Of a stretch of DNA of 64,000 bases, positions 3,389-60,770 are shown piece by piece (the stretch's first letter is position 1; each line of letters begins with the position of its first letter). The notes under the pieces are model-generated. The model was given only the letters and a program-made list of their open reading frames with translations. It was not told where the DNA came from and did no database searches. Origin of the DNA: Pseudomonadales bacterium. Lineage in GTDB: Bacteria; Pseudomonadota; Gammaproteobacteria; Pseudomonadales; Porticoccaceae. Position numbers and translations under genes: made by a program. Location: assembly GCA_024234435.1 (NCBI GenBank), contig JACKOF010000002.1:61695-125694 (forward strand), written 5' to 3'.

Positions 3389-3411
3389 GCAATCGACACT
3401 GGAAGCCGCTG

Positions 3412-4548
3412 TTATACCTCTTCGTAAATACTGATCTGGTCCGGTGTAAGGCCATTCAGACAATAGTTGATCAGGCGCTCAACCATAGACGACGACATAG
3501 CCTGCCCCTTTTTAACCAGCAACTGTCCATTAGTACTGCGGATATCGTCGGCGATCACCATATTTTCTGACAACTGTGTCACCCGTATGACCTTTACCAC
3601 CCTCTCCGTGCTGGCGCCCATAACAGATTCCAGCGCCTCCAGAACTTTAGGATCATAGAGGTGTTTGTTGGATTTTAATTTTGCCAGCGCTTCACTCTCC
3701 GAAAGCCCTGCACAACCAAAAACCAGATCCAGCACCAGTTTCAGAATGCGGGCACCCTGAGGGATATCATCCCCGGCCACATCGTCGATAGGAATGCCCG
3801 AGCCGTCGTAACATTTATTCTGGTAGCGAACAATTTCCGAAATACCTTCCAACCGGGGAATTTTATCAATTAACTGACCACCAATTTCCGGGTACTTATC
3901 AAAAATAAGCCGTTCGTCTTCCGTCAGCGGATTACCACGGATCACTTTGTCCACCATGCTTTCGGGAAGAGTGACCGCACCAATTTGACCAAGTAATGCG
4001 GCCGCCTCAAGCTCCCACAGGTTGCCAATCCCCATCTGCCCGGCACACTTGACCATGTAATCCTTGATCGTAGGTGCATAGCCAAAAATCCTCGGACTTG
4101 CAATGGAAAGGATCTCAACCATGGCCTGAATACTGCCTTTCACGGTTTCTTCCAGTAGCTCTTTTTCAGCCCTGAGCAAGCGGTGATGGCTGAGTGCAGC
4201 ATTAATGGCTGAGGTCATTTCTTCCGGAGAGCAGGGTTTGTTCAGAAACCGATAAACGTCACCGACATTGACTGCGGATACCACCGTACCCTGATCTGCA
4301 TTGCCCGTTAGCATGATTCGGACCGTGTCCGGGTATTTCTCCTTCATGACGGACAAAAACTGCGCGCCATTCATTTCCGGCATATTCATATCGGAAACAA
4401 CAACCGGAAACGGACCTTCCTTCCCAGCAATCTCCAGAGCCTGTTTGCCACCAGTAGCCGGCACCACATTGAAGCTTTTCCTGAGTGTACGCTGATACGC
4501 CTGCAGGATATTGGGTTCGTCATCAACAAATAGTATTCGTTCAGCCAT
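3412..4548 (-). CDS. Response regulator: REC domain plus a degenerate HD-GYP-like output domain
   Basis: N-terminal REC (FVDDEP, VVVSDMNMP, LNKP). The C-terminal region has HD-GYP architecture, but HD is replaced by GQ (AALLGQIGAV) and HHExxDGxGYP by RYQNKCYDGSGIP. It sits 14 nt downstream of the REC-HDOD gene. Confidence 0.85.
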   Translation of the reverse strand: MAERILFVDDEPNILQAYQRTLRKSFNVVPATGGKQALEIAGKEGPFPVVVSDMNMPEMNGAQFLSVMKEKYPDTVRIMLTGNADQGTVVSAVNVGDVYRFLNKPCSPEEMTSAINAALSHHRLLRAEKELLEETVKGSIQAMVEILSIASPRIFGYAPTIKDYMVKCAGQMGIGNLWELEAAALLGQIGAVTLPESMVDKVIRGNPLTEDERLIFDKYPEIGGQLIDKIPRLEGISEIVRYQNKCYDGSGIPIDDVAGDDIPQGARILKLVLDLVFGCAGLSESEALAKLKSNKHLYDPKVLEALESVMGASTERVVKVIRVTQLSENMVIADDIRSTNGQLLVKKGQAMSSSMVERLINYCLNGLTPDQISIYEEV

Positions 4549-20940: not shown

Positions 20941-21366
20941 GTGGTTTTGCTGAAGGTTGCCCGACAATCCGGTTTTACCCTGATTGAACTGATTGCGGTG
21001 ATACTGATTCTCTCAGTACTCACCGCCGGGGTCGCCAGCCAGTTCAGCAACACCTCACAGTTTCAGGCCATGACGACCCGCGACGATATAGTTGCGGGTT
21101 TGTTTTATGCCCAGCAAATAGCCCTGGCCAGAGCAGCAACAGACAACACGGTTGCGTTCGTATCGAGTGGAAACAGTATTGATGTCCTTGAAGACGGCAC
21201 CACAGTTAACGGCATATACCCCCTCACCCTTCCCGGTGGTTTTACCCTGACCAGCGCCACTCTCAACTATGACAAGCTCGGCAGGACAACCGCCACAGCA
21301 CTGACATTGAGCGACGGTTCCAGTAGTGTCGTCATTCAGGTATCGGCCTCCGGCTATGCAAACTGA
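20941..21366 (+). CDS. mshC: Minor MSHA pilin (MshC-position prepilin)
   Basis: GTG start. The QSG/FTLIELIAVILILSVL prepilin motif. Confidence 0.7.
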   Translation: MVLLKVARQSGFTLIELIAVILILSVLTAGVASQFSNTSQFQAMTTRDDIVAGLFYAQQIALARAATDNTVAFVSSGNSIDVLEDGTTVNGIYPLTLPGGFTLTSATLNYDKLGRTTATALTLSDGSSSVVIQVSASGYAN

Positions 21367-22000
21367 AAAACCTTTTTGGATCACTCCAGATCCGTTCGTG
21401 ATGGCAGCCTCGCCAAACCGCCATTGCGAGCCGCAGGTGCGGCAATCCAAAAAAATATTGCTGGATCACCTCACCCGCGTTCGCAATAACAGCGCCACCT
21501 CCCGCTCATTGCGAGCCACAGGTGTAGCAATCCATAGAGCACGTCAACAAGGTTTCTCCCTGATTGAACTGGTGGTCTTTATGGTGGTGGTCGGGCTGGC
21601 TTTAAGCTCCACTATACTGGTTTACAACCAATCGGTGATTAACAGCGTTGACCCCATTATTCGCGTGCAAATGGCCGAACTGGCTCAATCACAACTGGAT
21701 GAAGTTATCGCCAGAAAATATGATGAGAATACTCCCACCGGCGGCATTCCAGCCTGCGGCAGTGCCGAAACCGGCGCACCGGCTTGTGCGGGCATGGGGC
21801 TGGAAGCGGGTGAAGTTCTTAGCGACCAGTCCACTCTGGACGATGTGGACGATTTCGATGGTTACAATGATACACCCTATACTGGCTATACCCGTGATGT
21901 CGCCATTAGCATTGTCGGCAACACCAAACAAATTACCGTAACGGTATCCGGCCCGAACAACCAGCAGCTTATACTCAGTGCTTTCCGAGCCAACTTCTAG
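21356..22000 (+). CDS. mshD: Minor MSHA pilin MshD with an unusually long N-terminal extension encoded by two repeat elements
   Basis: Prepilin motif QQG/FSLIELVVFMVVVGL. The only ATG is at 21356 and overlaps the upstream stop (ATGCAAACTGA). An alternative internal TTG lies at 21509. Confidence 0.65.
   Translation: MQTEKPFWITPDPFVMAASPNRHCEPQVRQSKKILLDHLTRVRNNSATSRSLRATGVAIHRARQQGFSLIELVVFMVVVGLALSSTILVYNQSVINSVDPIIRVQMAELAQSQLDEVIARKYDENTPTGGIPACGSAETGAPACAGMGLEAGEVLSDQSTLDDVDDFDGYNDTPYTGYTRDVAISIVGNTKQITVTVSGPNNQQLILSAFRANF
21378..21448. repeat. 71-bp imperfect-palindromic repeat element, copy A
   Basis: Sequence runs GGATCAC...CATTGCGAGCCGCAGGTGCGGCAATCC. It aligns without gaps to copies B and C. 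Confidence 0.8.
21463..21533. repeat. 71-bp imperfect-palindromic repeat element, copy B
   Basis: Sequence runs GGATCAC...TCATTGCGAGCCACAGGTGTAGCAATCC. It lies 14 nt after copy A. Confidence 0.8.
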
Positions 22001-22010
22001 GCTAATCACT

Positions 22011-22793
22011 GTGATATCAACCACCCGAAAGTCATTTTCAGCTCGCAGTCAGTCCGGTTTTACACTGATTGAATTGATTACAGTGATCGTGATTCTCTCG
22101 ATCATCGCCACTTTCGGCAGCGGTTTCGTGGTATCGACTCTGGATGCCTATAGCCAGACCCAGGACCGCAGCAAACTGATTAACCGGGGACGTCAGGCAA
22201 TAGAGCAGATCACCCGCCGAATCCGGGGCGCTACCCCTAACAGTATCCGTATTACCGGCAACTGCCTGGAGTTTCTGCCGCTGGCCAGTGGCGGCAATTA
22301 TTTAAATGCCGTGCCCGATCTGAATAACGGCGCCCCCGCCTCCAACACGATAAGCATCACACCCTATAGCGTCGATTTTGGTACTGCACGGCATGTCACT
22401 ATCGGCGCAGACAGCGCTGGTGACATTTACAGTGGCGGGTCGCTGGCAACACTGGATTCATTCACGGCCACCACACTGACGCTCACGGGCAACAAGGTCT
22501 GGCAAAGAAATTCACCCACACGGCGTTTCTACCTGACCGATAACCCGGAATCGTTCTGCATGACAGGAGCAAACCTGCTGCACCACAGTGGTTACGCCAC
22601 CCCCCTGACCAGCACCGGAACACCCGGCGGGGCAGGCACACTGATGGCTGAAAATGTATCCTCCGGCACCCCTTTTGCGATAGAGGCAGGCACTGAAACC
22701 CGCGGTGCAGTGGTGATGATTGATTTGGTATTTGCCGAGAAAGACCAGCAGGTACCTATTCGTCAGGAGGTATTTGTTCGCAATGTTCCCTGA
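22011..22793 (+). CDS. mshO: MshO, prepilin-like minor pilin
   Basis: Prepilin motif QSG/FTLIELITVIVILSIIATFG. Start is either GTG 21978 (track) or GTG 22011; the 5' end is uncertain. Confidence 0.7.
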   Translation: MISTTRKSFSARSQSGFTLIELITVIVILSIIATFGSGFVVSTLDAYSQTQDRSKLINRGRQAIEQITRRIRGATPNSIRITGNCLEFLPLASGGNYLNAVPDLNNGAPASNTISITPYSVDFGTARHVTIGADSAGDIYSGGSLATLDSFTATTLTLTGNKVWQRNSPTRRFYLTDNPESFCMTGANLLHHSGYATPLTSTGTPGGAGTLMAENVSSGTPFAIEAGTETRGAVVMIDLVFAEKDQQVPIRQEVFVRNVP

Positions 22794-23349
22794 CACGTTC
22801 TGTAATAGCTTAAACCGCCTTCTGGATCGCTTCACCGCTGTTCGCGATGACAACCTGCCCTCACTGTCATTGCGAGCCGAAGGCGTGGCAATCCAAAACC
22901 ACTCAAGCCAAAGGCGCTCTCTGCATCTACCCCAAAAGCAACAAGGCTTTCTGATGCCGCTGGCCATTTTTATTGTCGTGATCATGGGCTTCTTTATTAC
23001 CACTCTCTCCCGCACCACCAGCCAGACGGCAACCTCCACCACGCAGGAGGCGATTTCACTGCAGGCTTTTTACGCAGCAGAAAGTGGTGCGCAACTGGGC
23101 ATGGCCAACCTGTTTTACGACACACTGAATCCATTAACGGCTTCAGCGGTTACAGGCCGTTGCGATGCGATGGCATTAACACCCAGCTTTAGCATCACAG
23201 GGCTGCGAAACTGTTCAGCCAGCGTCAGCTGTGCAACCGACAGTTCCGTTCCCGGTAAAAGCTTCTATACCATTACCAGCGTTGGCCGGTGTGGAGGCAC
23301 TGACATTGGTTCAAACCGAACTGTTCAGGTTTCGGCAAAAATGGAATAA
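22783..23349 (+). CDS. mshP: MshP (PilX-like minor pilin-associated protein), N-terminal region encoded by a repeat element
   Basis: ATG at 22783 overlaps the mshO stop by 11 nt. Hydrophobic segment QQGFLMPLAIFIVVIMGFFITT. Position in the operon. Confidence 0.6.
   Translation: MFPDTFCNSLNRLLDRFTAVRDDNLPSLSLRAEGVAIQNHSSQRRSLHLPQKQQGFLMPLAIFIVVIMGFFITTLSRTTSQTATSTTQEAISLQAFYAAESGAQLGMANLFYDTLNPLTASAVTGRCDAMALTPSFSITGLRNCSASVSCATDSSVPGKSFYTITSVGRCGGTDIGSNRTVQVSAKME
22824..22894. repeat. 71-bp imperfect-palindromic repeat element, copy C
   Basis: Sequence runs GGATCGCTTCACCGCTGTTCGCGATGAC...GTCATTGCGAGCCGAAGGCGTGGCAATCC. Confidence 0.8.
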
Positions 23350-60699: not shown

Positions 60700-60770
60700 G
60701 GATTACTTCCTCGCTTCTTCTCACAATGCCGGAACGCTGGCTGTCATTGCGCGCAGTAGCACAGCAATCC
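60700..60770. repeat. 71-bp imperfect-palindromic repeat element, diverged copy D
   Basis: Sequence runs GGATTACTTC...GTCATTGCGCGCAGTAGCACAGCAATCC. Same length and termini as copies A-C. Located in a convergent intergenic region. Confidence 0.65.

Follow-up and report, generated by a model that had tools for sequence, protein, structure and literature searches.

Why should a pilus operon carry several copies of a palindromic repeat, and what kind of element is that repeat? The question arises from a 64,000-nucleotide stretch of a Pseudomonadales bacterium of the family Porticoccaceae (the window; assembly GCA_024234435.1, contig JACKOF010000002.1, positions 61,695 to 125,694), in which four 71-bp repeat units, here called A to D, had been pointed out in a reading of the letters alone (the sequence-only reading). 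Copies A, B and C lie in an operon for an MSHA-type pilus and copy D in a distant intergenic region. Our favoured explanation, to which we give a probability of about 0.75 as a whole, is that the units are dimers of a hairpin class (ATTGC class) associated with Ssn-type nucleases, that they are orphans in this genome, and that they ride as in-frame passengers in the msh genes. The anatomy of the units, their distribution, the association with nuclease genes in other genomes, the existence of empty and filled sites and the conservation of the frame were observed directly and are described in turn.

Modular anatomy of the repeat units

The sequence of all four units was found to be as the sequence-only reading had described it. 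The gapless alignment of A, B and C held as well, with identities over 71 nt of 69% (A/B), 75% (A/C) and 73% (B/C), and a repeat search joined the three into one direct-repeat family (67–73% identity over 90 nt). Copy D, which had been called diverged, reached 37–41% identity to the other copies in the gapless register and shares with them the ends GGAT...ATCC and the overall build. The ends of the unit are inverted (TGGAT...ATCCA), and all eight arms in the window terminate in TCCA; because every copy is flanked by T...A, the unit is better given as 73 nt than as 71 nt. The parts of the units are listed below, as assigned from sequence, repeat search, fold and identity for copies A and B, and from sequence, RNA and single-arm DNA folds and identity for copy C.

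21378-21448: copy A, tag-to-tag dimer
21378-21405: left arm of A, module in reverse complement with an ATCAC/GTGAT stem
21406-21419: loop of A, 14 nt
21420-21448: right arm of A, GCCATTGCGAGCCGCAGGTGCGGCAATCC
21449-21462: spacer between A and B, tail-to-tail, 14 nt, AAAAAAATATTGCT
21463-21533: copy B, tag-to-tag dimer
21463-21490: left arm of B
21491-21504: loop of B
21505-21533: right arm of B, CTCATTGCGAGCCACAGGTGTAGCAATCC
22824-22894: copy C, best-preserved dimer
22824-22851: left arm of C, reverse complement of GTCATCGCGAACAGCGGTGAAGCGATCC, with an ATCGC/GCGAT stem
22852-22865: loop of C
22866-22894: right arm of C, GTCATTGCGAGCCGAAGGCGTGGCAATCC
60700-60770: copy D, diverged dimer in an exopolysaccharide (EPS)-type locus, TGTC tag of the right arm intact

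The 71-mer is not the basic unit of the repeat; it consists of two inverted modules of ~29 nt that are joined tag-to-tag around the 14-nt loop. From 5' to 3', the module comprises a (C/T)GTC tag, an ATTGC stem, GAG, a variable mini-hairpin (typically C-GNA-G closed), GCAAT and a CCA tail. The outer stem occurred as ATTGC/GCAAT in 140 distinct sequences and as ATCGC/GCGAT in 11, and it was paired in 90% overall, a figure that is indicative only, as the sample was partly chosen on ATTGC. The inner hairpin varies with compensating changes, as in GGCCGAAGGCC, CCGCGAAGCGG and GCCCCGAAGGGGC. Since the left arms of copy C and of the dimers in a related genome (G004) are of the ATCGC variant, these dimers are heterodimers.

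Preservation of the modules differs among the copies. Both arms of C retain an intact TGTC tag and the CCA tail; the tags of A are degenerate (CGCC and TGCC), with GCC in place of GTC and the compensating change mirrored on both arms (GGC / GCC), and those of B are degenerate too (GCTC and TGTT). In copy D, a motif scan recognized a module in each arm (CATTGTGAG...GTAATCC in reverse complement and CATTGCGCG...GCAATCC). From A across the spacer to B, the modules alternate in orientation in the manner of bacterial interspersed mosaic elements (BIMEs), and the spacer is similar to the AAAAATATC... spacers of tail-to-tail pairs at C1:137730 and C1:1645956 (C1 to C5 denote the five contigs of the assembly, with the window at C2:61695-125694).

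The hairpin that the sequence-only reading had expected for each unit was recovered for three of the four. Forward-strand RNA folds of A, B and C had energies of -25 to -30 kcal/mol and z-scores of -3.3 to -5.0, and the 231-nt junction folded at -73.5 kcal/mol (z = -3.7); the fold of copy D was no better than that of shuffled sequence (z = -0.1). Rfam covariance models run against positions 21000-23300 gave only chance-level microRNA and snoRNA matches (E ≥ 0.7), and a terminator and promoter scan placed no site on the elements. The peptides derived from the elements that were scanned matched no NCBIfam model, and protein models of Rickettsia palindromic elements (RPEs) gave no match either.

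In-frame position within the msh operon

The genes surrounding copies A to C form an MSHA-type pilus operon that includes an ATPase with the MshE c-di-GMP motif, a platform protein, pilins with N-methylation motifs and a DUF6701 MshQ-like protein; homologues carry the names MshD and MshP in Porticoccaceae and Cellvibrionales. The operon location given by the sequence-only reading was correct and at the same time incomplete, in that the three copies lie inside the mshD and mshP reading frames. The genes concerned are the following.

20941-21366, forward strand: mshC-like minor pilin gene; copy A begins 11 nt past its stop codon
21356-22000, forward strand: mshD (minor prepilin), 214 codons plus stop from the coupled ATG
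21356-21553, forward strand: leader-coding part of mshD, 66 codons; N_methyl motif at residues 61-84
21978-22793, forward strand: mshO-like minor pilin gene; copy C begins 30 nt past its stop codon
22783-23349, forward strand: mshP, 188 codons plus stop from the coupled ATG
22783-22947, forward strand: N-terminal part of mshP, 55 codons

The mshD start codon at 21356 overlaps the mshC stop codon (ATGcaaacTGA), and from it an open frame crosses A, the spacer and B (156 nt, 52 codons) and reaches RARQQG/FSLIEL, where the slash marks the cleavage site, so that the leader has 66 residues. Deletion of 21378-21533 in silico left a leader of 14 residues, MQTEKPFYRARQQG/F, and no in-frame ATG, GTG or TTG is present between copy B and the cleavage site. 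Likewise, the mshP start codon at 22783 overlaps the mshO stop codon (aATGttcccTGA), and the frame continues through C to the conserved KQQG/FLMPLAIF. Frame 0 of the element always contains a stop; the joint frames that are open number one of three through A and B together and two of three through C.

Two pilus genes appear to tolerate copies A, B and C, which are in frame with the segments that encode their N-termini; in mshD this segment is a leader predicted to be cleavable. Translation through all three copies, cleavage of the leader and the lack of a regulatory role are inferred; a prepilin peptidase gene was found in the genome. With the leader predicted to be cut off, mature MshD would be left unchanged by the repeats. 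MshP has a similar conserved QxG-F/Y motif, at which cleavage is only a possibility, and for C translation is less assured than for B, since ATG 22954, an alternative mshP start, lies 7 nt downstream of AAGG.

The public MshD call (199 residues) begins at ATG 21401 inside copy A and still spans half of A and all of B, and the mshD call of a relative, L230, begins inside the mature transmembrane segment. Automatic callers misplace starts at these overlapping msh junctions.

Empty, filled and expanded sites in relatives

A presence/absence comparison of msh loci, which the sequence-only reading had proposed, revealed that most orthologues are without the repeat and that some carry extra units. 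At the orthologous msh junctions of G013, G010, G016, G038 and L230 the elements were missing; in relatives with empty junctions the mshD ATG overlaps the mshC stop codon, and the leaders have 10–14 residues. The closest relative, L230 (a 1.38-Mb metagenome contig), encodes a mature MshD that is 82% identical to that of the window; both of its junctions are empty, its mshD leader has exactly 14 codons, and 17 codons precede the conserved G in mshP. The scaffolds L221 and L231, from the same metagenome series (mature MshD 81% identical), have the flanks of the window with more units between them: a solo module and two exact 71-bp units with an 84-nt period in mshD, where the leader reaches 79 residues, and two units, in frame, in mshP. 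The msh loci are polymorphic for the presence and the copy number of the repeat, and the frame is kept in every state. Between the window and L221, dN/dS for mature MshD was ~0.06, with synonymous sites near saturation, which indicates that mshD remained functional while carrying the repeats.

Measured against the empty L230 site, the insert in mshP amounts to 114 nt, more than a single 71-mer. A further, decayed module may be present at 22899-22930 on the forward strand (CACTCAAGCCAAAGGCGCTCTCTGCATC...), to judge from a resemblance seen by eye only.

Independent inserts were found at the same place in other MshD leaders, namely a tail-to-tail pair of another module variant in P0016/L222 and another module variant in P0023. 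The 37-residue leader of P0012 (MshD of Porticoccus sp. GXU_MW_L64) contains an unrelated repeat-like peptide, LDVGRWTKRTAQLRSRSSNVKHQTS; a further repeat family seems, from this peptide, to use the same leader position. At the mshO/mshP junction of G016 lies an unrelated palindrome of ~110 nt (GTGGTTGCTTTTGCAAC...GTTGCAAACGCAACCAC; locus L040, G016:C45:150500-156500, at ~3400-3550 on the reverse complement); it is in frame as well, and 54 residues precede the conserved G.

Copies in the genome and across phyla

The sequence-only reading had also proposed a genome-wide search for copies. Across the 3.11-Mb assembly, a profile search together with motif scans recovered ~15 repeat loci with ~22 modules; outside the seed, the profile search found copies at C2:137926-138003 (E = 1e-8) and C4:57232-57300 (E = 3e-4), and the core pattern had 7 exact matches in the genome against 0 for the reversed control. 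All module matches within C2:61695-125694 map to A to D, and the window holds no further copies. The remaining copies in the genome are all intergenic, several of them ~10–90 nt from the 3' end of a gene, and none lies in a long open frame. The convergent intergenic position that had been assigned to copy D was confirmed by the directions of its flanking genes. Six of the ~15 loci fall within 61 kb (C2:83000-144100, corresponding to window positions 21300-64000 plus ~18 kb beyond its end), a region that holds the MSHA operon and the EPS-type locus with asparagine synthase-like and glycosyltransferase genes (names read by eye). One module locus is situated between flgL and the flagellin gene (C2:475651). 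The tail-to-tail pairs at C1:137730-137815 and C1:1645956-1646040 lie within longer common flanks (TTAAGGAACCGCTGATTAAT...), and these shared flanks suggest a composite repeat that contains the module.

In a set of 41 relatives, exact matches to the core pattern were patchy: 84 in G016, 23 in G022 and 5 in G004, with 0 in most genomes and 0–1 for the reversed control. With ~15 loci in the genome, patchy occurrence in relatives and absence from orthologous junctions, the proposal of a dispersed element in the style of repetitive extragenic palindromes (REPs) or miniature inverted-repeat transposable elements holds, and its alternative, an ordinary coding sequence without further copies, does not agree with the additional copies or with the mostly empty orthologous sites.

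A scan of the species genome collection returned at least 120 loci matching the module. The matches listed include Alpha-, Beta-, Gamma- and Deltaproteobacteria, Helicobacter, Bacteroidota, Melainabacteria, Planctomycetota, Chloroflexota, Armatimonadota, Gemmatimonadota, Verrucomicrobiota, Firmicutes and bacteria of the candidate phyla radiation (CPR). The estimated chance expectation is of the order of 150 matches in 596 Gb; however, the matches listed have a common internal consensus and usually an inverted partner 15–30 nt off, which argues that the cross-phylum family is real despite this estimate. GTC was preceded by C in 72% and by T in 24% of 134 modules from other genomes (CGTC/TGTC, 96%), and A followed GCAATCC, completing the CCA tail, in 73%. 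Partners were arranged tail-to-tail in 60% and tag-to-tag in 7%, and 32% had none; the 71-mer of the window is thus the minority, tag-to-tag form. A search of 201 genomes with a tag-to-tag dimer pattern gave a handful of matches, two of them resembling coding sequence.

Association with Ssn-type nuclease genes

The GIY-YIG nuclease SsnA (94 residues) binds and cuts the canonical motif CGTCATTCCCGCGMAVGCGGGAATCYRG as single-stranded DNA (ssDNA), the cut falling a few nt upstream of the motif, and ssn genes, which encode single-domain GIY-YIG proteins of ~95 residues, are typically bracketed by such motifs, NTS or Ssn-related motifs (SRMs) (Chenal et al. 2025, Nat Commun 16:2388, PMC11893778). 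Among the relatives, the ssn gene of G004 is flanked on both sides by tag-to-tag dimers whose ends, TTATT/GGATCGC...GCAATCC/AATA, are as in the window copies. One of the three ssn genes of G016, on contig C54, is likewise bracketed by ATTGC modules, and those of G007 and G027 are bracketed by canonical motifs, found with the published SRM pattern.

A search of 400 genomes of the class revealed an Ssn-type gene in 91, and among the best 30 loci, which were examined for their flanks, 8 had ATTGC modules at their flanks and 16 had canonical SRMs; no locus had both, and 6 had neither. In a maximum-likelihood tree of 37 nucleases, all 18 SRM-flanked proteins fell into one clade (support 91/96) and all 10 ATTGC-flanked proteins outside it, a clustering of labels that was matched in 0 of 500 shuffles. 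ATTGC modules belong to a cross-phylum family that flanks genes for Ssn-type GIY-YIG nucleases and is not linked to RAYT genes. From this association, the ATTGC module is probably the cognate repeat, or recognition hairpin, of a separate Ssn branch.

No Ssn gene was found in the 3.11-Mb assembly of the genome itself, with ~2.5% of the genome unassembled. Its only small GIY-YIG gene is ~33% identical to the Ssn queries and is taken by us, on its sequence and not from a database assignment, to be YhbQ-like; the other GIY-YIG match, in a 628-residue frame, is presumably UvrC. The ~15 repeat loci are accordingly orphan copies, some of them decayed; the low copy number, the divergence of 25–30% between copies and the degenerate tags fit orphan copies in decay.

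Two further observations concern other gene families. A YhbQ-like, non-Ssn small GIY-YIG gene of G016 (L176, G016:C13:12698-12913) has one ATTGC module 83 nt away, which may be coincidence, since G016 carries 84 modules. A linkage to genes of 23S-rRNA intervening sequences (four-helix-bundle family, PF05635) was considered and rejected: the family is absent from the present genome, and the two G016 copies have no module within 1.5 kb.

Proposed origin of the in-frame copies

By analogy with the canonical motif, the module would be the recognition hairpin of a nuclease from a sub-group of the Ssn family, and the repeats would have spread with, or by means of, an ssn gene. The elements would have landed just 3' of stop codons, as is the general habit of REPs, and in overlapping, translationally coupled msh genes a position 3' of a stop codon would already be within the next gene. 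Copies A and B would in this way have lengthened the MshD prepilin leader from 14 to 66 residues, and C would have added residues to the N-terminus of MshP. Only stop-free, frame-keeping arrangements would persist, and the extra MshD residues, being upstream of the G/F site, would be removed by prepilin peptidase. Since the first residues of a prepilin are cut off and the genes are coupled by overlap, the tolerance can be explained without assuming a function for the repeats. The hairpins may also affect coupled translation or the stability of the mRNA.

Several observations weigh against this explanation. The published SRM pattern, HGTCWYN(0-2)YYVSBRHN(0-5)WNVSBRGN(0-2)RNCYNB, had no match in A to D or in the whole window. 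G022, with its 23 modules, has no detected ssn gene (86% complete assembly), modules are missing from G008 despite its ssn gene, and module counts and Ssn presence are only loosely correlated among the relatives. In addition, no ssn gene was present within 8 kb of dispersed modules at any of 120 loci among the matches listed, a result that is uninformative for repeats that are dispersed. Set against the empty L230 site, the mshD locus showed a clean length difference of 156 nt with no recognizable target-site duplication, and the lone arms of A and B fold weakly as ssDNA. Class III leaders usually have 5–30 residues, and 66 is well outside this range. Finally, the alternative mshP start at 22954 is plausible, and the public mshD start is at 21401.

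Alternative explanations

The last of these points leads to an explanation in which the repeats are untranslated intergenic DNA, mshD and mshP start downstream of them, and the open frames are accidental. Besides the AAGG-preceded ATG of mshP, it can draw on the finding that REPs at annotated N-termini are often really extragenic (Di Nocera, De Gregorio & Rocco 2013, BMC Genomics 14:522, PMC3733652). However, the lack of an in-frame start between copy B and the G/F site of mshD means that a processable prepilin can be made only if at least B is translated, and the coupled ATG is the start in the relatives with empty sites. For mshP, the gene of G038 has no downstream ATG, and the motif KQxG(F/Y), which precedes the alternative ATG, is conserved. 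Moreover, the frame is kept in every filled locus despite the differing numbers of units. We consider an untranslated state of the repeats improbable. Somewhat better odds, although still low, are given to the idea that the MSHA operon has recruited the hairpins as regulators at the RNA level, which is compatible with the passenger explanation. Located 22 nt and 41 nt past the coupled starts, they would damp coupling or protect the upstream mRNA, and so set a low ratio of MshD and MshP to the pilins encoded upstream. The strength of the RNA hairpins, both singly and over the 231-nt junction, the persistence of insertions in two lineages with mature MshD under purifying selection, and the recurrence of different repeats at both msh junctions in other Porticoccaceae speak for such a role; on the other hand, L230 and most homologues do without the insert, its sequence and copy number vary freely, the same modules occur at unrelated intergenic sites and in many phyla, and no terminator-like site falls on the elements.

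A third explanation concerns the origin of the units, which could be REPINs, that is, REP doublets that a RAYT (Y1 HUH) transposase copies, known from E. coli and Pseudomonas. The doublet build, which gives a long hairpin, and the BIME-like alternation of module orientation in the array resemble REPINs, and the genome has one Y1 transposase-like gene. However, the modules are without the GTAG tag, this only Y1 gene has unrelated inverted repeats of the GGGGTCAGAG type at its flanks, none of the Y1 genes of this genome, G016 and G022 has a module within 1.5 kb, and no tyrosine transposase gene flanked by CGTC-type REPs was found by Di Nocera et al. (PMC3733652). A RAYT origin is therefore judged very improbable. 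The Y1 gene itself (IS200-like; C5:23888-24562 of the present genome, G000, and 1374-2216 of locus L014) has 35-nt inverted repeats with GGGGTCAGAG, which fits the GGGGWSAS motif of TIRYT genes (PMC3733652).

Implications

What the analysis adds is the modular anatomy of the repeat, an Ssn-associated class that the published pattern misses, and in-frame residence with empty and expanded sites. CGTC-type REPs were long held to lack a dedicated enzyme, until the 2025 Ssn work tied one hairpin type to a single-strand nuclease; the present locus and the comparisons indicate a second hairpin class with its own nuclease branch, which is a target for enzymology and for single-strand DNA tools. The empty, single and multi-unit states amount to a natural experiment on extra sequence in a prepilin leader, and bear on the annotation of start codons in pilin genes near repeats and on the limits of prepilin peptidase substrates.

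A more far-reaching proposal is put forward only tentatively, as one that we think is rather doubtful. Prepilin leaders might be a recurrent, possibly preferred, harbour for Ssn-type repeats, with repeat leaders of 45–80 residues being made and removed. The repeats might act there, by tuning the coupled translation of minor pilins or by marking pilus genes and other genes for surface structures for Ssn-mediated control of recombination with incoming ssDNA, and the ATTGC module might be a separate Ssn specificity class across many phyla.

Comparison with known systems

A full-text literature search with the core sequence returned unrelated primers only, and a search on palindromic repeats in prepilin leaders found nothing relevant in the literature collection that was covered. 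The nearest described relatives are the CGTC-tagged REPs, a superfamily that includes dRS3 of Neisseria and RPE-4 and RPE-6 of Rickettsia and is characterized by a tag that stays unpaired, a stem opening with A-T pairs, the tail CCA and the formation of dimers; copies lie just 3' of genes and occasionally in frame within genes, and no tyrosine transposase is linked to them (PMC3733652). The window units share these features: a C/TGTC tag unpaired at one end (seen as TGTC in the two arms of C and in the right arm of D), a stem beginning with A-T/T-A pairs (ATTGC/GCAAT, ATCGC/GCGAT or ATCAC/GTGAT), the CCA tail, inverted dimers or clusters, sites 3' of genes, in-frame copies, and no link to a tyrosine transposase. 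They differ in the stem, since the families CGTC-1 to -4 have a continuous stem of 8–9 bp with a loop of 4–5 nt (PMC3733652), whereas the module of the window has a 5-bp outer stem, an internal loop and a variable inner mini-hairpin. The tag-to-tag form of the window units is a further difference, tail-to-tail being predominant in the ATTGC class. Bradyrhizobium CGTC-1 units with odd loops are mentioned in the same work, and the motif ATTGCGAG was not found in the available text and supplementary files (PMC3733652).

With NTS/SRM repeats the modules have in common a directional hairpin, a conserved GTC upstream, and a C right after the palindrome, as well as the repeat-ssn-repeat layout (in other genomes), the broad phylogenetic spread and a repeat type that follows the nuclease tree. 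They also cluster near surface-structure genes; the 61-kb cluster on C2 recalls the NTS clusters beside Neisseria surface-protein genes, with a clustering statistic that is post hoc. For those clusters, Ssn-mediated control of recombination with incoming ssDNA has been proposed, and for the copying of the repeats an insertion sequence-like hypothesis has been only raised (PMC11893778). Unlike NTS/SRM repeats, the window copies are missed by the published pattern, ATTGC-flanked nucleases lie outside the canonical clade, and the repeats occur here without an ssn gene. Inverted doublets, alternating orientation, characteristic spacers and single-strand hairpins are shared with REPIN/RAYT systems and BIME arrays, from which the units are separated by the missing GTAG tag and by the lack of any RAYT gene flanked by the module (Y1 genes of G000, G016 and G022).

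The closest parallel to the in-frame residence is found in the RPEs, palindromes that lie in frame in open reading frames and leave them intact, and some N-termini decorated by them are expressed (PMC3733652); in the msh genes the frames that are open through A and B and through C would likewise be translated. The sequence family and the host are different from those of the RPEs, and the inserts in the window lie in a segment that is predicted to be removed from the mature protein, which would explain their tolerance without recourse to surface loops.

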